The notes beneath the pieces are model-generated. The model did not search any database. It was not told where the DNA came from and worked only from the letters and a program-made list of their open reading frames with translations. Shown piece by piece: positions 7,018 to 36,641 of a DNA stretch of 51,809 bases. A program made the translations under genes and the position numbers. The DNA is taken from assembly GCA_040900015.1 (NCBI GenBank), contig JBBDZS010000022.1, forward strand, positions 1 through 51,809, given 5' to 3'. Numbering within the stretch: the first letter of the stretch is position 1; each line of letters starts with the position of its first letter. This stretch comes from Minisyncoccota bacterium. Its GTDB lineage: Bacteria; Patescibacteriota; Minisyncoccia; Phycocordibacterales; UBA9973.

Positions 7018-8472
7018 TTATATCATCGGCTCAGCTTCCACAGATGGTTTATCGCCGTCCTTCTTATGCCCCTTGCCTTCGATGATAGCCTTCTCTTCCG
7101 CACTTCGGATAATGGTGGATTCCTCTTCAGCGATCAGCTTGGCCGCATCACCTCTTGGTATAGAATACTTTCTACGGGAAGCCTCGATTATTTCCTTCCT
7201 GTATGAAGTGTGGGTTGGTGGTAGAACACGCAGGGTTTCCGCCGAAAACGGATCATAAGACTCCCCGTCTATCGTCATCTTTATGTAAATTTCTCCGACT
7301 GCGAGATTTATCATATCTTTCACATCGAAAAGCGGAGAAAATTCTGGCTTCATTTTGACCGCGTCTTCCCCACCCACTCGAAATGTGATAACTGAACCTA
7401 CATTTCCGAGCACTGCCTGGTGCACCTTGGGTAATATCTGGCCGACATATTGATGAGCTATGGTAAGGTTGAGGCCGTATTTGCGCGCCTCAGATAAAAT
7501 ATTTTCAAATGTCTGAGTCACCACATTTTGAAACTCGTCGACATATAGATAGAAATCGACACGTTCTGACTCCGGTATGGCGGCACGCTCCATTCCGGCT
7601 TGCTTTATCTTAGTTAAGAACATCGAACCCAGAAAAGAGGAATTCTCTTCGCCTAGGCGACCCTTAGATAAATTGATGAAAATGATCTTGCGTTCGTTCA
7701 TCAGCTTACTTATGTCGATTTTATTCTCTTTCTGTCCAAAAATATTGCGAAGGAGCGGATCAGACAAAAATTGACCTAGCTTATTCACCAGCGGAATGAT
7801 AGCGTCGGTGTCGAACTTCTCCGACCAATCGGCAAATTCAATAGCGAAGAATCTTTTGACCATATCATCGGTGATGTATTCCACCACCTTCTGTCTATAA
7901 TTTCGATCCGTAAGCATTGATATCATTCCACGCATTGTGGCGTGAGGATAATCCAAAAGTGCCAGACAAGTGAAACGGAAGACATGTTCGAGCCTAGGGG
8001 TCCAGTTGGCACCGAATTGTTTCTGAAAAACTTCGATCAGTCCCTGGGTGAGCTGGAATTTGAACATCGGGTCCACATTGGCAAGTGGATTGAAAGAAGC
8101 AGGAAAATCAATGTCGGCTGGATCAATAATGCACACATCTTCGATACGTTCTTTAGGAATATAGTCGAGCATGGCATCGATGACATCGCCGTGTGGGTCG
8201 ATCAGACACAGACCGTGACTATATGTCACATCCTGGCGAAGCATAAGTTCTAGGAGCTTAGTCTTGCCTACGCCGGACTTACCGATGATATATAGGTGGC
8301 GCCTGCGGTCCACCCGCTTGATACCGAAAATGAATTTCTTTTCTTCGAGCGCAGCCACATAGTTCGTCCTGCCGATAAAAGACACCTCTTCGGGTTTGAC
8401 CTTGCCGAAAACAGGCAGCTCAGGCGGTGGAGGTCCATGTTTGATTATTTGCACCCGGTTCAGCTTGGACAT
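7018..8472 (-). CDS. Soluble TraD/VirD4-like (type IV coupling protein-like) P-loop ATPase, paralog 1
   Basis: Walker A IIGKSGVGKT, Walker B-like DFYLYVDEFQN, then SEARKYGLNLTIAHQY. No TM segment. Clear paralog of 10270-12339. Confidence 0.7.
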   Translation of the reverse strand: MSKLNRVQIIKHGPPPPELPVFGKVKPEEVSFIGRTNYVAALEEKKFIFGIKRVDRRRHLYIIGKSGVGKTKLLELMLRQDVTYSHGLCLIDPHGDVIDAMLDYIPKERIEDVCIIDPADIDFPASFNPLANVDPMFKFQLTQGLIEVFQKQFGANWTPRLEHVFRFTCLALLDYPHATMRGMISMLTDRNYRQKVVEYITDDMVKRFFAIEFADWSEKFDTDAIIPLVNKLGQFLSDPLLRNIFGQKENKIDISKLMNERKIIFINLSKGRLGEENSSFLGSMFLTKIKQAGMERAAIPESERVDFYLYVDEFQNVVTQTFENILSEARKYGLNLTIAHQYVGQILPKVHQAVLGNVGSVITFRVGGEDAVKMKPEFSPLFDVKDMINLAVGEIYIKMTIDGESYDPFSAETLRVLPPTHTSYRKEIIEASRRKYSIPRGDAAKLIAEEESTIIRSAEEKAIIEGKGHKKDGDKPSVEAEPMI

Positions 8473-8506
8473 ATATAGATTTATATTACCACAAATTCAG
8501 CTCTTT

Positions 8507-10267
8507 CTAATATACTTCCTGCTGATAGCACTTTTCGCAATAAACAATTTCCGGCCGGTCGGGTGCGTATCCGGTTTTGAATATTTCTGGACAAGGAGAA
8601 TTATTATGATTGTGTTTCGTCGTGTTTTGATATGTACCTGTTACATCAGCAGTACCGGCACACATGCACGCTCGTTCGTATAAATGTACCTTAAGCCTAT
8701 CGCTGATACGGCGCTCGTGCCGGCATTCACTGCACAATCTTGGAACCGGGAGATTTTCTTTTTTATAAAAAATTAGCTCGTTCTCAAGTACACGATAGGG
8801 ATTTTTGCAATTATCGCATTCGATGACCTCTTTCAAAATTTGATCGTTTGCATCATTTATTGAACTCGGCAATTCATCGGCTTTTTTAGTAATCACATAT
8901 TCCCCTCTTTCGATTTCTATCCAGCCATATTTCTTAGCTTCGGCTTCTTCTTTTGATATCGGAAAATGTTGGACAGCTAGAGTATTATTATAGCCAAATG
9001 GCGACAATTCCGCAGGAAAAAATTCTCCATATTTATATACTGTTCCCTTGGAATCGACATATGGCATTTCATCCATATTCTTTTTAATTTTAGCTGCAAG
9101 TTTCTCGTACTCTTCCTTAGTATACTGTCTGTTTAGAATACAATACTGTTTTTTCTTTAATCCGACGCACCCAAAACAATCCGAGGAACTAAAAAGATGC
9201 ACGGAATATTCGCAACTTCGACAAGACGGCCAGCAGTTGCGAGAAAATTTATTATTGTATGAATTCTGCCCACATTCCATTGTTTCATAATTTAACTCTG
9301 TATATCCTCCCCAGTTTGTAGTATCGTAGTTATCTTTATTGCTTGGTACCTCGAGATACTGGCAATAACGCATGTTTTCACCCTCGCGGACTAAATAACT
9401 GTCATTTACTTTTTTACAGTCAGTGACATAAGAGCCGCTTGAATTTACATTCCTTAGACCTTGATTATATTTCACAGGTTGAGTGTTCCAAAACGCTCTT
9501 GTTTTCTTGCGTGCCTCCGCTAGGCCTGAACTTGTATCCAACTGCATTTTTTTGATCTCTTTTTCATAATCCTCTTTTGTGTACTGTTTATTAAAAATAC
9601 AATAAGAAGACTTCCGCAGATTGGTACTACCGAAACAATCATTACATCCCACACATCCCCTACAAAACCATAAGTTCCTTGAGTCCATTGATCTCTGGGT
9701 AAAATAACATTGGTAGCATTTATCCAACCAGAATGAATCGTAACAACGCTCAGAATGCGATACGTGAGAATTATCTACACAGTCTTTACAGGAATTAACT
9801 CCGTTACCATACATGCAATCTTCAGAGTTGTTTGAATTGCATAAAAGATAAGAATTCTTGAGTCGTGAGGCATTAAATGAATACGGGCTATTGATCATAC
9901 CAATAACATTAAAGTTATACATAGGTACTTTCATCTCGAGCTCATGCAATTGTTCCCAAAAGGATATAGAGAAATCTATTTCCATACCATAATCCATTGC
10001 ATCCCAACTATCCCCGAGCCAAGTTTCTCGAGTAATTATATTCCTTCCACTTTCTTTGGGGTAAGTAGATAGAATTTCTTTGCTAGAAAAAGCATCTTTT
10101 ACTTTGAAAAGCTTACGTTCGTTTCGGTAAACCATTCTTCTTTGTGCACGACAAAGCGGACAAAAAGTCGGTGGAGGTACTTTTATTTTTTCGTAGAAAC
10201 TAAAATCCTCAGGATCTATAGTAAAGTCTCGCTTGCAGTTCTGGCAGTTTTTAACTTCTTGTTTCAT
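8507..10267 (-). CDS. Cysteine-rich double zinc-ribbon protein, paralog 1 (uncharacterised family)
   Basis: 586 aa with no signal peptide or TM and about 34 Cys by manual count. N-terminal NCQNCKRDFTIDPEDFSFYEKIKVPPPTFCPLCRAQRR is echoed near the C-terminus as ECDNCKNPYRVLENELIFYKKENLPVPRLCSECRHERR. There are two internal C.GC..(R/K)K.YCI.N.QYTKE.YEK modules. The protein ends RPEIVYCEKCYQQEVY. Its ATG lies 2 nt after the upstream ATPase stop. Confidence 0.85.
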   Translation of the reverse strand: MKQEVKNCQNCKRDFTIDPEDFSFYEKIKVPPPTFCPLCRAQRRMVYRNERKLFKVKDAFSSKEILSTYPKESGRNIITRETWLGDSWDAMDYGMEIDFSISFWEQLHELEMKVPMYNFNVIGMINSPYSFNASRLKNSYLLCNSNNSEDCMYGNGVNSCKDCVDNSHVSHSERCYDSFWLDKCYQCYFTQRSMDSRNLWFCRGCVGCNDCFGSTNLRKSSYCIFNKQYTKEDYEKEIKKMQLDTSSGLAEARKKTRAFWNTQPVKYNQGLRNVNSSGSYVTDCKKVNDSYLVREGENMRYCQYLEVPSNKDNYDTTNWGGYTELNYETMECGQNSYNNKFSRNCWPSCRSCEYSVHLFSSSDCFGCVGLKKKQYCILNRQYTKEEYEKLAAKIKKNMDEMPYVDSKGTVYKYGEFFPAELSPFGYNNTLAVQHFPISKEEAEAKKYGWIEIERGEYVITKKADELPSSINDANDQILKEVIECDNCKNPYRVLENELIFYKKENLPVPRLCSECRHERRISDRLKVHLYERACMCAGTADVTGTYQNTTKHNHNNSPCPEIFKTGYAPDRPEIVYCEKCYQQEVY

Positions 10268-10269
10268 TT

Positions 10270-12339
10270 CTATTCCAAAACTTTCCTGAGTACATCTTCC
10301 GGAACTTCTTTGGGCTTCTGTGGCACAGGTGTATCGGCTTGTTTGGGTGGGCGTGGTGGCGGAGTCGGCACAGGTGTTTGAAAAATGGGTGCGGGCGCTT
10401 TTTCCGGCTCAGGTGTTGATTCGACAATTTTCTCTTTGATTAATTCTTTGAGTCGATTCATATCGTCCGAACTCGCAGCGCGATCTTTTTGCGGATGAGA
10501 TATTTCTTTGGTTTTATCCTTTAAGGCTTCGAGTGATATTGGTGCTGGCACCGGGGGTAGCTCAGGCTTGATCTCATGAGATGCCACTAAAGGTGTTGCA
10601 AGTGTTTTACTTATTATGTCCTTAAGGGCTGTATTTTCTCTCGGCGGGTGTGGTTTGTATGTCGGTTTTAATTGCTGTCTTGCCTGAGGCTTAGGTGATG
10701 GCTTTATCTGAGGTTTTGTTTGGTGCTTCACCTCGGCTTGCTGACCTTCCTTAGGTGGAAATTCTATACCAAGGTCGGCTAGTGGCTTGTAATATTTGGA
10801 ATCATCATATCTGACTTCGTTCTCTGGACCCTTTTCGACTTTGACTTCGCCAGATTTTATTTTAGCAATGCATTCTTTGCAATACACTGGCCTGCCTGGC
10901 TCCGGCTTGAAGGGTACAGTACTCTCTCTTTTACAAAGCGAACAAATTGTCTCAAATTTCTCAAAACTACCTCCCCCCGCACCGCTACTTTGTCCACGAT
11001 GTTCAGTATAATCTCCAGCAGATCCGAGTGACATTCCGCTCCAGCTATTTATTTCATTTTCGACCACTTCTTTGGACTTGCAATAAAGTTCGCGAGAGGA
11101 ATTGATGACCTGTTCCTCGATTTCCTTGTTTCCAGATTGCACCATAGGCGGTAAAGTCTTCGCAGAGAATGGTCGTGAAGTCACCCCGTCTATCATCAGC
11201 TTCAGATAGATTTTGTAATTCGGCAAGTTCACAATATCTTGCGGAGTAAATTCTGGATCGAATTCTTTTTCTAAAAAATCCGCATCATCGGAGCCCACGC
11301 GAAAAACTATCATCGTACCGACATTGCCGAATACAGCATCGCGCACGGCCGAGCTTTTATCAGAAATCAACTGTGCAGTGTATTGGTGCGCCACGGTCAA
11401 ATTCAGACGGTATTTACGGGCCTCGGAGAGTATGCCTGCGAAGGCGTCTGTTACGAAGTTTTGGAATTCGTCCACATATAGATAGAAATCCTTACGGCTA
11501 TCCTCTGGAATTCGCACCCTCTCCATAGCGGCGAGCTGAATCTTGGTAATTATCATACCTCCTAGGAGTGAGGAGTTATCCTCACCGATACGCCCCTTGG
11601 AAACATTTACCAGGAATATTTTGCCCTGGTTCATAATATCAAAAATATTAATCGTGCTCTTAGACTGGCCGACGACATTGCGGATAATCGAAGTAGAAAG
11701 AAACTGACCGACTTTGTTTTGGATCGGAGCAATGGCCTCGTTTCTAAATTTGTCCTGCCAGGCCTCGTACTCGTGCACCCAAAATGCCTTGATGACCGGG
11801 TCCTTGAGATTTGAAATTATCTTCTGACGATAATCCTTGTCCACGAGCATCCTGGGAATACCGAGAAGTGTGGTGCCTGGGGTATCGAGAAGCGCCAGAA
11901 TAGCATTGTTGAGAATATATTCCATTCGGGCAGACCAGGCGTTTGCCCATATCTTGGTGAAAATACCCATCAATCCCGAAGCGACGAGGTGCTTATATTG
12001 TGGGTCTACTAGCTCGAGCACATTAAAACCGATATGATAGTCGGTGTCCGCCGGGTTAAAATATACAACATCCTTTAGTCGGTGCGGTGGGATGGCCGAG
12101 AGCACTCCCTCGACGAGCTCTCCGTGTGGGTCCACTACGCAAACGCCTTCGCCGTTTAAAATATTCTGAATAACCATATTGAACATTAGCACGGATTTAC
12201 CAGTGCCGGACTTTCCGAGTAGGTATACATGCTGACGGCGATCTTTGCGCTTGATTCCGAAGAGAGTATTCTTGTCGCGATATGTGGTAAGGCCCAGATA
12301 TGTCAGGTCTTTATTTAATGGTATTTCCGGCGTGTCCAT
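10270..12339 (-). CDS. TraD/VirD4-like P-loop ATPase paralog 2 with C-terminal zinc ribbon and Pro/Lys-rich tail
   Basis: Walker A LLGKSGTGKS, DFYLYVDEFQN, SEARKYRLNLTVAHQY. Downstream come CSLCKRESTVPFKPEPGRPVYCKEC and a low-complexity KPQIKPSPKPQ..PVPTPPPRPPKQ tail. Start set to the ATG at 12337-12339 (MDTPEIPLNKD). Confidence 0.7.
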   Translation of the reverse strand: MDTPEIPLNKDLTYLGLTTYRDKNTLFGIKRKDRRQHVYLLGKSGTGKSVLMFNMVIQNILNGEGVCVVDPHGELVEGVLSAIPPHRLKDVVYFNPADTDYHIGFNVLELVDPQYKHLVASGLMGIFTKIWANAWSARMEYILNNAILALLDTPGTTLLGIPRMLVDKDYRQKIISNLKDPVIKAFWVHEYEAWQDKFRNEAIAPIQNKVGQFLSTSIIRNVVGQSKSTINIFDIMNQGKIFLVNVSKGRIGEDNSSLLGGMIITKIQLAAMERVRIPEDSRKDFYLYVDEFQNFVTDAFAGILSEARKYRLNLTVAHQYTAQLISDKSSAVRDAVFGNVGTMIVFRVGSDDADFLEKEFDPEFTPQDIVNLPNYKIYLKLMIDGVTSRPFSAKTLPPMVQSGNKEIEEQVINSSRELYCKSKEVVENEINSWSGMSLGSAGDYTEHRGQSSGAGGGSFEKFETICSLCKRESTVPFKPEPGRPVYCKECIAKIKSGEVKVEKGPENEVRYDDSKYYKPLADLGIEFPPKEGQQAEVKHQTKPQIKPSPKPQARQQLKPTYKPHPPRENTALKDIISKTLATPLVASHEIKPELPPVPAPISLEALKDKTKEISHPQKDRAASSDDMNRLKELIKEKIVESTPEPEKAPAPIFQTPVPTPPPRPPKQADTPVPQKPKEVPEDVLRKVLE

Positions 12340-12356: not shown

Positions 12357-12370
12357 GTAAATAAACAAAC

Positions 12371-12405
12371 AAAAAAGCCCAAGGCGGTCGCCGAGAGGCT
12401 TTTTT
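12371..12405 (-). terminator. Candidate intrinsic terminator downstream of the small TM ORF
   Basis: A6 run, GC-rich imperfect hairpin (gcccaaggcggtcgccgagaggc), T6 run. The stem pairing is imperfect. Confidence 0.4.
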
Positions 12406-12421
12406 GTTTGTTTAGCAAAAT

Positions 12422-12607
12422 CTATTCCAGAGTGCTCTCTTCCGATGTGCCATCAGGAAGGCTTAAGTCTACATTGATATCAGACGCATCATCAGGGACG
12501 CCACCACGAGTAGCGAACCACCATACGCCAAAACCAACAAGAAGGACAAGTACAATAACAATCAACATTGTATTTGTACCTGAAGAATCATTGTGGGTAG
12601 GTTCCAT
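12422..12607 (-). CDS. Small single-pass membrane protein (hypothetical)
   Basis: 61 aa with a central hydrophobic helix MLIVIVLVLLVGFGVWWFA and an acidic C-terminus. It occupies an otherwise empty gap. Confidence 0.35.
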   Translation of the reverse strand: MEPTHNDSSGTNTMLIVIVLVLLVGFGVWWFATRGGVPDDASDINVDLSLPDGTSEESTLE

Positions 12608-12693: not shown

Positions 12694-13239
12694 TTATGGC
12701 TGAAACAGGTCTGCTGGAGAAATGCGCACGGAGGTTACAGTTGGAAACTGTTTGGCTGTAGCTTCAATCTGAAGAAGAAGAATGCCCACGCGACAAGACC
12801 CACCACCGGTCTTATTATTAGGATCGTTGAATGTAAGAGTCGCCACACCATTTGATATTGTGGCATTCTCGAGCGTTACTCCTTCAAGAGGAAATTCAGT
12901 TTCTATGCCTTCCGCTCTTTCTGCTTGCGTTAGCTCTCCTCTCAACAAAAGCTTGATTGATTCCGCAAGTGGTGTAGTAGTGTCTGGAAGCACACGGTCT
13001 ACAGCTACCAACCCTTTACTACTGCAGAGTATCCCTCCTTGACCTTGATCCAAGTCTGGATTGTAATAATAAAGCTTAATAGGAATCGTAACTACATCTT
13101 CCTCTTCCTCTTCCTCTTCGTTTACATCTTCGATAACGGGATCATTTATGACCCGATTATCATCATCATTCCTCATCGCATAATATCCCAACCCGAACAA
13201 AATTATTAATATTAAAACAACCAATAATATTTTTTTCAT
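12694..13239 (-). CDS. GerMN-domain secreted/membrane-anchored protein
   Basis: N-terminal signal/anchor MKKILLVVLILIILFGL, acidic linker, then a GerMN-like core (IKLYYYNP..., LLRGELTQAE, ATLTFND). Confidence 0.55.
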   Translation of the reverse strand: MKKILLVVLILIILFGLGYYAMRNDDDNRVINDPVIEDVNEEEEEEEDVVTIPIKLYYYNPDLDQGQGGILCSSKGLVAVDRVLPDTTTPLAESIKLLLRGELTQAERAEGIETEFPLEGVTLENATISNGVATLTFNDPNNKTGGGSCRVGILLLQIEATAKQFPTVTSVRISPADLFQP

Positions 13240-13259
13240 ACATATATTATACCATAGTT

Positions 13260-13772
13260 TTAGCCCTTCCGCACCTTAGTCATAGTGACCTCGTTTCCTT
13301 CTTTATTGTGAACAGCAGAATCAAAATAATTTTCCATTATCAATATGCCCCTTCCCTTTTCCTTGAATAAGCCTTCTTCACTTGTAGGGTCAGGAACTTC
13401 CTCTCTCTTAAAACCATTTCCTTCGTCTCGGATATGGATAACTACTTTATCTTTTGATATCTCGATTGTCACATACACATGCTTTGAGTTTCTTTTTTCT
13501 GGATGCTTCGATATTTCTATCCTAGCCATCTGACACAGATCTCCACCTTCAGGCTTAGTCAATCCTAAATTACCATGAGCAATGGCATTGATCAGGGCCT
13601 CACGAAACCCAAGCTGTATATCGTATATCTCTTCCTCGCTCCACCCAACCATCTGCAATCTTTCTTCTAGTGCCGTAGCCGCCGATTCAAGTAAATCTAT
13701 ATCCGTCGGCAAAGCCCATAGGTCCTCCTTGAATTCGAAATTCGGCTTGTTAGCGTCTAATCCTTCATACAT
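13260..13772 (-). CDS. RsbW/SpoIIAB-like anti-sigma factor serine kinase (HATPase_c family)
   Basis: N box EALINAIAHGN and G1 box IRDEGNGF. Size of 170 aa fits. Confidence 0.6.
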   Translation of the reverse strand: MYEGLDANKPNFEFKEDLWALPTDIDLLESAATALEERLQMVGWSEEEIYDIQLGFREALINAIAHGNLGLTKPEGGDLCQMARIEISKHPEKRNSKHVYVTIEISKDKVVIHIRDEGNGFKREEVPDPTSEEGLFKEKGRGILIMENYFDSAVHNKEGNEVTMTKVRKG

Positions 13773-15907: not shown

Positions 15908-16453
15908 ATGTCAAGTAAAGATAAGGAAAACAACCAGTATTCTCGAAAAATCCTTAGAATATTGGGCCAAAAGTCGGCCGTATCGCTTGAAGATATAACC
16001 GATAAGGTAAGCGTCCACAAAGGGAAAAAGGACCCTAAATACGCGATTACACGCTCTTTAAAAGGCCTTCGTGAGGCCGGATTAATAGAGTGCATTTCCT
16101 CCCCACACAACGAATACGCCCGCCTGACAAAGGAAGGTAAAAAGAAGGTCCACAGCCTAGAGCTAGAAAGCGATACCAGCTTGGTCAACACCTCCTGGGA
16201 TGGACAATGGAGAATCATCCTGCTTGACCTGCCGGAGAGTCGCAAGGCCGAGCGCGAGAGCCTGCGCTACCTTCTAAAAAAGGCCGGTTTCGTGTGTCTG
16301 AAGAATTCTGCCTGGATCTCCCCTTTCCCCTTCGAGCACCTGTTCACAAATATCAAAAAAGACCTGGGTCTGACTACCGAAATGATGATCATAACCACAT
16401 CAAATATCGACGAGGAAACTAAAAAAATCCTATTCGAAACTTTCGGGAAGTAG
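15908..16453 (+). CDS. PaaX-like transcriptional regulator (winged helix plus Cas2-like middle domain)
   Basis: N-terminal wHTH (ILRILGQKSAVSLEDITDKV). Then the PaaX-type signature WDGQWRIILLDLPESRKAERESLRYLLKKAGFVCLKNSAWISPFP. Confidence 0.55.
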   Translation: MSSKDKENNQYSRKILRILGQKSAVSLEDITDKVSVHKGKKDPKYAITRSLKGLREAGLIECISSPHNEYARLTKEGKKKVHSLELESDTSLVNTSWDGQWRIILLDLPESRKAERESLRYLLKKAGFVCLKNSAWISPFPFEHLFTNIKKDLGLTTEMMIITTSNIDEETKKILFETFGK

Positions 16454-31621: not shown

Positions 31622-32749
31622 CTATTTCACCACTCCCCCGCCCAAGCAAACATCCTTGTCGTATACTACCACCGACTGGCCAGAAGCAACCATAACCGAC
31701 CTTTGAAAAATTACTTGCGCAAGGTTCGACTTTGCACAAATTATAGTACAAGGTAAGAAATCGCCATGATAACGCACTTGAGCTGTATATATTTTATCTG
31801 CTTTCGGTTGTAAAAAAATCCAGTTTGTATTTTCTATTCTAATGTTCGTTAGAACTTTAGAATGAGAATATGTTGAATTTTGGGATACTATTAGGATATT
31901 TTTCTTTAAATCCTTGGCTACTACATAATACGGTCCGTCGTTGGGGCTTTTCTTGGTTACGGTAAATCCATGCCTTTCGCCCAAGGTATGGAAAACTGCG
32001 CCCATGTGCCAGCCGATAATTTTGCCTTTCTCGTTGACTACCTTGCTTTTTTTTTCTTTTATATAGTGTTTCAAAAATTCTTTGAGATCTATCGCCCCCA
32101 AAAAACATATCCCTTGACTATCCTTTTTTTTCGCGACTGGCAATTTGAATTTTTTAGCAAGAGTACGAACTTCAGTCTTTTTCAAATGTCCGACTGGAAA
32201 CAATATCTTACTTAGTTGTTCCTGTCTCAATGTCCAAAGAAAATAGCTTTGATCTTTTGAAACATCTTTGCCCTTTAAAAGTAAAGAATCGTAAGATTTC
32301 TGACCGCGGAAGGTTCCGCCCGCAGGGTGGAGGAAAGCGAAAGAAATTTTATGATTCTTTACTTTTGCATAGTGTCCAGTCGCTACAAAATCTGCACCCA
32401 TCTTAAGAGACTTTTTTAAGAAAGCGCCGAATTTGACCTCCTTGTTGCACATCACATCCGGGTTTGGTGTCCGCCCGGCCTTGTATTCCGAGATCATATA
32501 ATCCGCCACCTCCCTCTTGTAAACATCTTCTAGGTCAAAAATAAGGAAAGGAATATCCAGATGAGCGGCCACCCGCATCGCATCGCGGCGCTCTTCCTCC
32601 TCGTTGCACTCCAGAAAATCTGGATGCCAGGTGCGGATAAAAACCCCAACGACATCAAAGCCCTGGTTCTGCAGAAGCGCCGCGGCAACTCCGGAATCCA
32701 CTCCGCCGGAAAGACCCACAAAGACTGTTTTATTTGCAGTTTTTTTCAT
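31622..32749 (-). CDS. mnmA: tRNA-specific 2-thiouridylase MnmA
   Basis: PP-loop VGLSGGVDSGVAA, CN..VKF, and KDQSYFL. The ATG at 32749 is preferred; the ORF-track GTG at 32761 is the alternative. Confidence 0.9.
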   Translation of the reverse strand: MKKTANKTVFVGLSGGVDSGVAAALLQNQGFDVVGVFIRTWHPDFLECNEEEERRDAMRVAAHLDIPFLIFDLEDVYKREVADYMISEYKAGRTPNPDVMCNKEVKFGAFLKKSLKMGADFVATGHYAKVKNHKISFAFLHPAGGTFRGQKSYDSLLLKGKDVSKDQSYFLWTLRQEQLSKILFPVGHLKKTEVRTLAKKFKLPVAKKKDSQGICFLGAIDLKEFLKHYIKEKKSKVVNEKGKIIGWHMGAVFHTLGERHGFTVTKKSPNDGPYYVVAKDLKKNILIVSQNSTYSHSKVLTNIRIENTNWIFLQPKADKIYTAQVRYHGDFLPCTIICAKSNLAQVIFQRSVMVASGQSVVVYDKDVCLGGGVVK

Positions 32750-32769
32750 AAGCAGAGCCACGGACGATT

Positions 32770-34275: not shown

Positions 34276-35598
34276 TTATATAGGTAGATTGGTTGGCGGC
34301 GATGCCTCCTTGGACTCTATACGCTCTAGGGTTGGAACTTTCAATATCTGACCTGGGAAGTGCCACAAGGTAGCCAGCTCCTCCACATTGAGTACAAAAG
34401 TTTGATGATGTTTGTAGGCAAGGAAAAATCGGGAGATCGGCCAGTGCATCCAAAGCGCGTGTTCAGAAAATAAGTGATGTCGGAGAGGCACATGATAAAA
34501 AGATCTTTCTTGATACTCATGGACGACCCTGGCGGTGAGTTTCGTTACTTTATGATCCGGCAAAGTGAAAGTGCCTCCGTAAGCATCGCCTTGTGATGAA
34601 TTCATACGAACAAACTCATTACTGTTGGGCTTGGCGTACTGACGAAAAATCAGGCGGATGTTGCGACGAGTATTCATATTGAAAGACTCTCTTTTGGCCA
34701 CATAGACCAACCTGATACCGGTTTCGAAACCCAGCTTGGTAACCTTCGTCGACATGCCATCCACCAGGTCATCCATATATTTCGGCACGCGGACTTCTCT
34801 TGACATCTCTCCGGGGTGACTGGGACGTTCGCTGTATTTGGTATATGGCTCTAGCATCTTTTTGATTTCCATATCGGCCTGTGTCACCCAATCATGCCAG
34901 GTAAACCATTTTCCGGGAGTTTTGTACGCTTTTTTGGAAGGAGTGATGACTATTTGTACCCATGCCTGTTCTCCTTTCTGCAGGGAACCAAAAAGTTCGA
35001 TTATCGGCGAAATGGGGTCCACTTTGAATTCTTCTTTGGGGTCTTTGTCGAGCCCGAAATCTGTGTAAGTCTTGATCGGATATGCCTCCGGTTTAGCAAG
35101 TCCAAATTCACAACCCCATGCCCTCCAGGCACTATGATCGGAAATATGATCGACTGCCAGGGTGTAATCCTCCACGACCTTTACATGTGCTTGGGGGTAC
35201 TGCGCGTACATTTGGGTTTCGATCAATGACCTTAGGCGGGATGGCGTGCGAAGATAAAAATGCACCTGTCCGTCGATTGACGCGATCTCAAGAGAAAACC
35301 AGAACCAAACAGCTCCCTGCCAGTATTCCTCCTTACCTCCTTTATTACTCCAGTGATAGAGTGCGTTGGTAAAAAAAAGCTCCATCGCCTTGGGAGACCG
35401 GAGTACTTCTCTAGGAGGTATGATCTCAAGCAGTATGAACTCTATGCCAGAAATAAAATCCTGACGGATATAATGAACCCATAGCTTGAAGGCCACCCAT
35501 CCCAAAAAGATAGTTCCAAATAATGGCAATATGTATATAGCGGCCCGGTAGAGAAAAAATATCAGTTCTTCCAAAATCATACCTATATGATAATACAA
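34276..35598 (-). CDS. Membrane-anchored protein of unknown function
   Basis: 440 aa with two N-terminal hydrophobic helices. Then LLEIIPPREVLRSPKAMELFFTNALYHW and a large soluble domain. No catalytic motifs were recognised. Confidence 0.6.
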   Translation of the reverse strand: MYYHIGMILEELIFFLYRAAIYILPLFGTIFLGWVAFKLWVHYIRQDFISGIEFILLEIIPPREVLRSPKAMELFFTNALYHWSNKGGKEEYWQGAVWFWFSLEIASIDGQVHFYLRTPSRLRSLIETQMYAQYPQAHVKVVEDYTLAVDHISDHSAWRAWGCEFGLAKPEAYPIKTYTDFGLDKDPKEEFKVDPISPIIELFGSLQKGEQAWVQIVITPSKKAYKTPGKWFTWHDWVTQADMEIKKMLEPYTKYSERPSHPGEMSREVRVPKYMDDLVDGMSTKVTKLGFETGIRLVYVAKRESFNMNTRRNIRLIFRQYAKPNSNEFVRMNSSQGDAYGGTFTLPDHKVTKLTARVVHEYQERSFYHVPLRHHLFSEHALWMHWPISRFFLAYKHHQTFVLNVEELATLWHFPGQILKVPTLERIESKEASPPTNLPI

Positions 35599-35612: not shown

Positions 35613-36641
35613 CTAGACAGCTATATAAAGCCCGTTCTTGTTCTTTTTAAAGTATTTGGAGTTCACCAGATTGACCAAGACAGTATTCTTCTTGAAATAT
35701 CTTTCTTTCATAACTCGATCCACTACATCTTCTTTGGATAAAGGGCCCTCTTTTTTCAGTATCTCTCTGATAACATCGCGGGCAATACCTTCCTTGTATC
35801 CCCATTCTGCCAAAGCATACATACCTCGGCCTACGAGAATAAATCTAGAATCCTTAATAAGTTCATTGTGGCAAGTAGCATAATGCGTCTTTCTGCCGAA
35901 GGTCTTGGAAATAGAGTCTGCCACTTCTTTGAAGTGCATTGGTGACCCATGTCTGCGCATGACTAGAAATGCGTAATCCTTAACTCCACGAGTACGAATA
36001 TTTGGTGAGCTAGCCCTACCCCACTCCCCCAGCGGATTTTTAGAAATTGTCTTCGACATCGAGAGCCACCTGCGTGCTATTTCTTCGTTGCGATATCTCT
36101 CCGCAAGATCCTTGGTATGCTCTAGAAACATTTTTATCATTTCAGTTTCAGGAATCAAATCTTCATCCTTCAAGCCACCATAAAGCTTCTTTAGAGCGTC
36201 GTGGACCTTGAGCGCAACACCATCATCCACACTCCATCTTGGGTGAAAGTGATTATCTTCTCGATGTTTCTTGAAAGCATCTCCTAGGACCAATAGAAAA
36301 TGGACATGGTTCTGTGTACTTTTATCCTTGGAAACATGCGGCAGTAACTCATGTTCAGCCACTACTGAGCCCAATGAATGTACTAACGATTTTAATTCTT
36401 CAAAAAAAGCCTGCTCTGCTTTATAGGTGCTCGATTTTTTTATCATAGTGAGTGCAGCGTCCTCTACTTGCCTGACTCTTTCACGGGTTATACCGTATTT
36501 CTTACCGATTTCCTCGAGAGTCTTCATATCGCCGTCAGCATGAAGTCCAAAACGATTCATAATTACATCTTTCGCACGCTCACCGAGACCGGAAGTTATC
36601 CTTTTGGTGACCTGTTTTGGTTTGAAAGATATTGTTGCCAT
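35613..36641 (-). CDS. Sigma-70 region-4-like HTH fused to a HARE-HTH-like C-terminal domain
   Basis: N-terminal RFGLHADGDMKTLEEIGKKYGITRERVRQVEDAAL is a sigma region 4.2 signature. The C-terminal MHFKEVADSISK...RFILVGRGMYALAEWG resembles a HARE-HTH. No region 2 is present. Confidence 0.5.
   Translation of the reverse strand: MATISFKPKQVTKRITSGLGERAKDVIMNRFGLHADGDMKTLEEIGKKYGITRERVRQVEDAALTMIKKSSTYKAEQAFFEELKSLVHSLGSVVAEHELLPHVSKDKSTQNHVHFLLVLGDAFKKHREDNHFHPRWSVDDGVALKVHDALKKLYGGLKDEDLIPETEMIKMFLEHTKDLAERYRNEEIARRWLSMSKTISKNPLGEWGRASSPNIRTRGVKDYAFLVMRRHGSPMHFKEVADSISKTFGRKTHYATCHNELIKDSRFILVGRGMYALAEWGYKEGIARDVIREILKKEGPLSKEDVVDRVMKERYFKKNTVLVNLVNSKYFKKNKNGLYIAV

Follow-up and report, generated by a model that had tools for sequence, protein, structure and literature searches.

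Does a zinc finger shared by two neighbouring gene products mark them as partners? The question arises on a 51,809-nucleotide stretch of DNA from a Minisyncoccota bacterium (GenBank assembly GCA_040900015.1, contig JBBDZS010000022.1; the whole stretch is referred to below as the window), in which a gene for a P-loop ATPase with the fold of type IV coupling proteins (ATPase-2), a gene for a Cys-rich protein (paralog 1) and a gene for a second such ATPase (ATPase-1) stand in a row, all on the minus strand. A sequence-only reading of this DNA had seen a zinc ribbon in ATPase-2 that resembles the ends of the Cys-rich proteins, together with an almost contiguous gene junction, and had proposed a physical interaction between ATPase-2 and paralog 1, or a common ligand such as nucleic acid or metal. 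All of its statements about the sequence itself were borne out by the analysis reported here; the proposed partnership was not supported. The finger of ATPase-2 is a known, promiscuous zinc module of the phylum that is older than, and independent of, the Cys-rich family, and the evolutionary partner of that family is the clade of ATPase-1, not ATPase-2. The features of the row (window positions; lengths in amino acids, aa, or nucleotides, nt) are as follows:

10270..12339, minus strand: ATPase-2, ATG at 12339; 689 aa; clade-A TrwB/VirD4-fold P-loop ATPase with a C-terminal finger and tail
10858..10959, minus strand: zinc finger of ATPase-2, residues 461-494; CxxC-x17-CxxC treble-clef; PF23477 / TIGR04272
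10273..10857, minus strand: ATPase-2 tail, Pro/Lys/Glu-rich, mostly disordered, with short conserved motifs
10273-10311, minus strand: last 13 aa of the ATPase-2 tail, KEVPEDVLRKVLE; conservation in 110 orthologues
10268..10269, minus strand: ATPase-2/paralog-1 spacer, 2 nt
8507..10267, minus strand: paralog 1, 586-aa Cys-rich protein
about 8528-8668, minus strand: C-x-C to CxxC region of paralog 1, residues 534-580
about 8516-8593, minus strand: terminal diverged PF23477-type finger of paralog 1, from profile search
8473..8506, minus strand: paralog-1/ATPase-1 spacer, 34 nt
7018..8472, minus strand: ATPase-1, 484 aa; clade-B ATPase, truncated, N-terminal domain gone

Gene distributions were compared in a sample of 401 Patescibacteria genomes. 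The ATPase family was present in 398 of them, usually in two copies (54-92% identity), whereas the Cys-rich family was found in only 21. A maximum-likelihood tree resolved three ATPase clades: A, which contains ATPase-2; B, which contains ATPase-1 (support 100/100); and C, which contains a further copy on contig C13 of the same genome. Clade A is the sole clade with the finger, and carries it in its deep branches as well. Finger-bearing ATPases were encoded in five genomes in which no Cys-rich gene was found (G284, G253, G124, G117 and G298); the finger-bearing ATPase is therefore independent of the Cys-rich family. A Cys-rich gene does follow ATPase-2 in 21 of 24 close relatives, but the subtype that follows differs from one relative to another, and in the same-genus genomes G284 and G256 ATPase-2 is followed directly by ATPase-1, the two lying 3 nt apart in G284. 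The finger and the 2-nt junction are thus not supported as a mark of partnership between ATPase-2 and the paralog, and no ORF (open reading frame) fusing an ATPase to a Cys-rich protein was found among the 150 and 220 ORFs inspected. Close relatives have anywhere from 0 to 3 Cys-rich genes between the two ATPase genes. The idea that a Cys-rich gene was recently inserted between adjacent ATPase genes was withdrawn, since most close relatives have one to three there and two have none. In relatives L008 and L009 the position after ATPase-2 is taken not by a Cys-rich gene but by one that encodes a membrane protein of about 590 aa (starting MKTEAKNFSWLDVPKSVWYF...).

For the clade of ATPase-1 the outcome was the opposite. 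When a clade-B profile was run on the same genomes, 16 of them scored 942-1267 bits, the next score being 855, and the full-length form was defined as at least 942 bits. All 16 genomes with full-length clade B were positive for the Cys-rich family, while none of the 380 family-negative genomes reached 942 bits (Fisher p about 1e-24, uncorrected for relatedness). Among the remaining five family-positive genomes, three had a truncated clade-B gene and none was found in two (G314 and G395). Within each of six families (f19, f37, f55, f60, f89 and f94) clade B and the Cys-rich family co-vary, both being present or both absent, which argues for repeated joint gain or loss. The two are also neighbours: the clade-B gene lies no more than 200 nt from a Cys-rich gene in 11 genomes (G000, G027, G073, G082, G119, G199, G244, G287, G301, G353 and G360) and within about 1 kb of one in G165, giving 11-12 of the 19 clade-B genomes. 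This adjacency takes at least five gene arrangements across families, against roughly 2% expected by chance. Co-inheritance of ATPase and paralog genes, which the sequence-only reading had made a test of its proposal, hence failed for ATPase-2 and held for the clade of ATPase-1.

The finger itself is genuine. The CxxC-x17-CxxC element that had been pointed out on ATPase-2 (CSLCKRESTVPFKPEPGRPVYCKEC, residues 465-489) matched PF23477 (zf_Tbcl_2) with an E-value of 9e-12 and 44.9 bits (44.9-51.4 across searches; cut-off 27) and NCBIfam TIGR04272 (CxxC-x17-CxxC) with 48.4 bits (cut-off 36), so that both its score and its four Cys residues at canonical spacing place it in this family. The AlphaFold2 (AF2) model shows a beta-hairpin plus a helix, with a predicted local distance difference test score (pLDDT) of about 86, and the finger is kept in 24 of 24 close ATPase-2 orthologues. 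The domain is nonetheless a generic one. PF23477 exceeded its cut-off in 189 of the 401 genomes, mainly in ORFs of 60-330 aa and in one to three copies; the stand-alone small proteins of Patescibacteria read ...QVPF.P.GDRPVYC.DC..., and 'VPF.P..RPVYC..C' is a domain-wide signature. The ATPase-2 finger resembles these proteins more than it does the tails of the Cys-rich proteins (51 bits, versus 14-32 bits for the tails). Such small proteins, encoded by open frames of about 90-330 aa in roughly half of the sampled genomes, consist of one to three tandem PF23477 fingers plus basic linkers (examples are G140:C1:340-600, G098:C15:6843-7091 and G209:C3:143551-143790). Zinc binding has been measured for small CxxC-x17-CxxC proteins of the archaeon Methanosarcina mazei (PMC12704099).

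Beyond the finger, ATPase-2 was said to continue into about 190 aa of Pro/Lys/Gln-rich, probably disordered tail. Its composition (P 18%, K 14%, E 10%, Q 6%) and its AF2 model (pLDDT mostly <50) agree with that description, and the tail additionally contains short conserved blocks, including the nearly invariant C-terminal KEVPEDVLRKVLE seen in 110 orthologues. The same tail is found in 680 protein clusters, whose public names are 'CxxC-x17-CxxC domain-containing protein' or 'type IV secretion system DNA-binding domain-containing protein'.

How, then, do the ends of the Cys-rich proteins relate to the finger? Paralogs 1 and 3 end ...DRPEIVYCEKCYQQEVY and ...SRPEIVYCEKCYQQEVY, which confirms the RPEIVYCEKC C-termini ascribed to them. 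A six-frame scan of the whole 504-kb genome with PF23477 gave four matches only, one in ATPase-2 and three at the very C-terminal ends of Cys-rich paralogs. For paralogs 1 and 3 the tails hit no family but PF23477, and that below threshold (14.5 and 16.7 bits versus 27); with this low score and the first Cys absent from its canonical place they fall outside the family as defined. Of the 184 full-length Cys-rich members taken from 80 related loci, 147 have C-x17-CxxC at their end and 22 the canonical CxxC-x17-CxxC; five of ten canonical tails exceeded the Pfam gathering score for PF23477 (canonical members, 28-32 bits). In hhalign profile comparisons the ATPase-2 fingers aligned with the canonical tails at a probability of 95% (E 2e-8) and with the paralog-1-type tails at 88% (E 3e-6), and the two types of tail aligned with each other at E 5e-25. 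The similarity, whose failure in profile comparison was to count against the earlier proposal, thus reflects real homology, and the tails of paralogs 1 and 3 are diverged copies of the domain that forms the ATPase-2 finger. The resemblance arises because both belong to one domain family; no specific contact is implied. In paralog-1-type tails, C-x17-CxxC is preceded, some 22 residues upstream, by an invariant C-x-C (C534/C536) and by an H-x-H loop. It looks as though an insertion had split the first CxxC knuckle of these tails, so that a four-ligand site may be kept.

Paralog 1 begins with a zinc ribbon, continues with a beta-solenoid-like repeat body and a second, C-proximal zinc ribbon, and ends in the diverged PF23477-type finger. 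Its N-terminal and C-proximal ribbons scored 18.6 and 16.9 bits against zf_Tbcl (PF13451), their best or near-best family, and so fell below its gathering cut-off of 24. The AF2 model (pLDDT 86, predicted template modelling score 0.86) shows finger-capped ends around a repetitive, beta-solenoid-like body. With this model, Foldseek found nothing in PDB or BFVD that matched the whole protein significantly: the top viral match had an E-value of 8.5e-4 but a template modelling (TM) score of 0.1, and what remained was a weak likeness to left-handed beta-helices and local zinc-ribbon matches. Whole-protein searches of Pfam, NCBIfam, PDB sequences and PADLOC with paralog 1 returned nothing, and literature searches for the Cys-rich family found no paper describing it. 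Paralog 1 has more than 7000 relatives. The paralog 1 family is one of accessory, patchily distributed, zinc-finger-capped beta-solenoid proteins.

As for the ATPases, the common core attributed to them was recovered: ATPase-1 and ATPase-2 are 46% identical over about 428 aa. The AF2 model of the ATPase-2 core (pLDDT about 90) found TrwB deltaN70 as its best PDB match in Foldseek (E 5e-10, TM score about 0.6, about 420 columns), followed by Cag-beta, DotL, HerA and VirB4, and Pfam TrwB_AAD_bind, T4SS-DNA_transf and TraG-D_C (PF10412, PF02534 and PF12696) scored above their cut-offs. No variation was seen in Walker A (GKSGTGKS), in Walker B (DEF) or at G42, G45, G47, K48, D290 and E291. A RecA-like nucleotide-binding domain, an inserted all-alpha domain and Walker motifs, as expected of a type IV coupling protein (T4CP), are therefore all present. 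Three other T4CP traits are lacking: the ORFs have no N-terminal transmembrane helices, the best scores against the curated NCBIfam models are 37-50 bits versus cut-offs of 250-650, and there is no genetic link to virB4 and/or a relaxase gene. The core is about 90% identical among loci in which DnaK is 77-90% identical. ATPase-2 is thus a copy of a near-universal, highly conserved Patescibacteria ATPase with the T4CP fold. Clade-B proteins are about 750 aa long elsewhere, with an N-terminal domain free of transmembrane segments, and are truncated to about 485 aa here. The third, clade-C copy (C13:3-2477 of the same genome) has a fused N-terminal domain of about 500 aa, resembling the membrane module described next, and is cut at both contig ends.

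The lack of N-terminal transmembrane helices had been noted for both ATPases, and this stands for the two ORFs, whose maximum 19-residue Kyte-Doolittle means (1.27 for ATPase-2 and 1.05 for ATPase-1; 0.72 for paralog 1) reveal no transmembrane-like segment. It does not stand for the family, in which a transmembrane-anchored N-terminal module does exist, either as a separate gene or as a fused domain. This module, here called MEM, is present in the window as follows:

34276..35598, minus strand: MEM, 440 aa, N-terminal transmembrane segment; tblastn E 3e-25 to 3e-31

The corresponding mean for MEM is 1.98, at residues 12-40. Of the 18 distant genomes first drawn, 13 have a MEM gene (about 435 aa, with an N-terminal transmembrane segment) directly upstream of the clade-A ATPase, from which it is split, and in clades B, C and D the domain is fused N-terminally. 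It gave no match in Pfam, PDB sequences or PADLOC, and was not homologous to T4CP N-termini in any search run. In the window, MEM adjoins a sigma70_r4/HARE-HTH (helix-turn-helix) gene (35613-36641, minus strand), as in the distant genomes, but without the ATPase. The ancestral membrane-anchored N-terminal module of ATPase-2 has probably been split off as the separate gene at 34276-35598. In distant Patescibacteria the HARE-HTH gene, MEM and the clade-A ATPase occur in this order, with MnmA following within a few genes; in the window YceG and an RNase T-like gene take the place of the ATPase before MnmA (31622-32761).

The doubt that the sequence-only reading had cast on a classical role in a type IV secretion system (T4SS) is in keeping with published work. 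A Patescibacteria genome has about two coupling-protein homologues that stand apart from its secretion systems and whose role is open (PMC12102498); of 5,713 VirD4-type homologues in 2,918 genomes, 148 lie near virB4, and it has been stated that 'exaptation cannot be ruled out' (PMC12102498). In agreement with this, the genome studied here has a VirB4-like gene on contig C8 and none near the ATPases; FtsK is encoded separately. The VirB4-like ATPase (C8:24663-27017, minus strand) scored 362 bits, over the cut-off of NF045971, and a separate upstream ORF matches the N-terminal part of the VirB4 model, possibly corresponding to the TrsD-like piece described in PMC12102498.

The gene junctions are as had been described. 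The ATPase-2/paralog-1 junction reads ...GAA TAG AA ATG, with the stop at 10272-10270, the 2-nt spacer at 10269-10268 and the paralog-1 ATG at 10267-10265, and ATPase-1 starts after the 34-nt spacer at 8506-8473. In 14 of the 24 relatives the distance between ATPase-2 and the next Cys-rich gene is -4 to +7 nt, and spacers of 23-45 nt, as between paralog 1 and ATPase-1, were found in many relatives. The three genes, followed by dnaJ, probably form a single transcription unit; the 2-nt and 34-nt spacers probably represent operon compaction and translational coupling, and the juxtaposition of paralog 1 to ATPase-2 is a lineage-specific operon packing. The start of the unit was placed after the following element, because it is a strong hairpin with a T-run:

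12362..12414, minus strand: hairpin and T-run, 22 nt upstream of the ATPase-2 ATG; -28 kcal/mol, z -7.5

This hairpin, perfect and flanked by an A-run and a T-run, lies between a 61-aa transmembrane mini-ORF (12422-12607) and ATPase-2, and likely terminates the upstream small gene; it could also terminate transcription from both sides. A TTG at 12372 was rejected as an unlikely start for ATPase-2 because it lies inside the hairpin. A TATACT -10-like hexamer ends 8 nt ahead of the ATPase-2 ATG and hints at a leaderless or near-leaderless start. A consensus scan for promoters and terminators was uninformative, giving fewer terminator-like sites than shuffled sequences and missing the hairpin at 12362-12414 on account of its loop size. 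Between dnaK and ATPase-2 lie genes for a protein that combines a Germane (GerMN) domain and a signal-anchor-like N-terminus (12694-13239, minus strand) and an RsbW-like HATPase_c_2 anti-sigma-type kinase (13260-13772, minus strand), and between dnaK and paralog 2 lies a divergent gene for a protein with a PaaX_M (Cas2-like middle) domain and an HTH (15908-16453, plus strand).

These results probably mean that the unit joins two things: a near-universal ATPase-2, equipped with a finger and a lineage-variable docking tail, and an accessory Cys-rich family that is partnered with the clade of ATPase-1. The ATPases would act as ring motors; the finger-capped, conserved termini of the Cys-rich proteins would be handles for the clade-B motor, with these proteins serving as its clients or adaptors. 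The tail of ATPase-2 might recruit partners of its own, by analogy with TraD, whose C-terminal tail recruits TraM. Several points weigh against this explanation. The bit-score cut would not separate truncated clade-B genes in family-negative genomes, and the sampled genomes are related, so that the statistics overstate independence. One genome, G284, has a truncated clade-B gene and no Cys-rich gene, and in G020, G024, G031, G048 and G256 none of the matches scored puts the clade-B gene next to a Cys-rich one. ATPase-1 is without the N-terminal domain that clade B carries elsewhere, and the local mechanism may differ. Finally, both ATPases flank the Cys-rich genes in the clade of the window, the spacing to ATPase-2 being very tight in 14 of 24 relatives, and a three-way complex of ATPase-2, the Cys-rich protein and ATPase-1 may exist.

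A more specific proposal, which we regard as tentative, is that the Cys-rich solenoids are dedicated clients (cargo or adaptors) of a soluble clade-B ring ATPase, the pair forming a previously undescribed accessory machine that is gained and lost together; the C-terminal PF23477-type finger would be the docking handle, and the finger of ATPase-2 would bring the housekeeping clade-A motor, or its anchor in the membrane, into contact with that same receptor surface. Direct interaction of ATPase-2 with paralog 1 through the shared finger, whether finger to finger or by way of a common ligand (nucleic acid or metal), with the 2-nt junction ensuring matched synthesis, would account for the real homology of the fingers, the tight spacing and the Cys-rich gene that comes next in 21 of 24 relatives. 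It is unlikely, given that the clade-A finger is present in genomes without the Cys-rich family and is closer to the stand-alone proteins, that the paralog subtype varies, that the intervening gene is absent in same-genus genomes and that no fusion was found. About as improbable is a role centred on nucleic acids, in which DNA or RNA is bound by the finger together with the basic tail, the ATPases work as FtsK/HerA-like translocases and the Cys-rich proteins, with their three fingers, bind nucleic acid as loaders or targets. TrwB, HerA, VirB4 and DndH, neighbours in fold, do act on DNA, stand-alone PF23477 proteins are basic after the second knuckle, the tail is 14% Lys and there are weak NCBIfam matches to the CedB/CedD DNA-import ATPases; the tail is, however, about equally acidic and basic, no nucleic-acid-binding domain other than the fingers was detected, and neither a relaxase nor a link to the competence and T4SS genes searched was found, with FtsK encoded apart.

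The effectors of T4SSs are commonly recognised via C-terminal signals, and the Cys-rich paralogs, as multi-copy diverging arrays with conserved termini, could in principle be secreted effectors recognised by their tails, fed by the ATPases into a VirB4-type system. The T4CP fold and the VirB4-like gene on C8 fit with this. We consider it more doubtful still, since the ATPases are unlinked to virB4 here and in nearly all Patescibacteria (the 148 of 5,713 homologues mentioned above), since in S. epibionticum the t4cp homologue is non-essential while the T4SS is essential (PMC12102498), and since a solenoid stapled by zinc is unlikely to be unfolded and exported. Least probable of all, and in our view very hard to sustain, is that there is no functional link, an expanding Cys-rich family having landed in permissive operon positions, with adjacency to the ATPases accidental. 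Many paralog-1 orthologues have no ATPase within 10 kb (e.g. L001, L004, L012, L016, L018 and L020) and array size is variable; but the perfect phyletic match with clade B (16/16 versus 0/380), the co-variation within families and an adjacency in at least five arrangements, far above chance, all speak against accident.

The orphan coupling ATPases of Patescibacteria therefore form several paralogue clades. They are anchored in the membrane by a domain, encoded apart or fused, without recognised family; the zinc finger that one clade carries is generic and no mark of partnership, and only one clade is inherited together with the family of large Cys-rich solenoids. A vague problem of orphan ATPases is thereby narrowed to a pair that can be tested, a clade-B ATPase with the Cys-rich protein next to it, and the search for an interaction turns from ATPase-2 to ATPase-1. 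If the Cys-rich solenoids are indeed dedicated clients of clade B, a concrete function would be given to T4CP homologues regarded as 'orphan, possibly exapted' (PMC12102498). To our knowledge, what is new is the test of the finger at the level of the domain, the finger's independence from the Cys-rich family and the clade-specific co-occurrence.

Compared with known systems, ATPase-2 shares with the T4CPs (TrwB of R388, VirD4, Cag-beta, DotL and F TraD) the fold of the nucleotide-binding and all-alpha domains and intact Walker motifs, and with F TraD a long C-terminal extension, disordered in part and conserved at its very end, comparable to the TraM-binding TraD tail. Unlike T4CPs, the family of ATPase-2 has no transmembrane helices in the ORF, its anchor being either the product of a gene of its own (about 440 aa) or a fused domain (300-500 aa) that is unrelated to known T4CP N-termini; it is near-universal and as conserved as DnaK, its genes here are unlinked to virB4 or a relaxase gene, and it is only 16-18% identical to T4CPs, with NCBIfam scores far under every T4CP equivalog cut-off. 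HerA-type ATPases (HerA-NurA and the SIR2-HerA and DUF4297-HerA defence systems) belong to the same ASCE ring-motor superfamily and are structural neighbours. The resemblance extends to the logic of the module: a motor gene has as its neighbour an effector or a non-enzymatic partner, and the accessory pair of clade B and Cys-rich proteins is patchily distributed. The differences are that the PADLOC matches are weak and generic (mad8, HerA), with no nuclease, SIR2 or other effector domain, and that the partner here is a zinc-finger-capped solenoid without known relative. With respect to the small TIGR04272/PF23477 proteins, the ATPase-2 finger has the same CxxC-x17-CxxC spacing and the same VPF.P..RPVYC..C signature, but at this locus the domain sits in the tail of a 689-aa ATPase or ends a 586-aa solenoid protein, of which it forms the last 35 aa.

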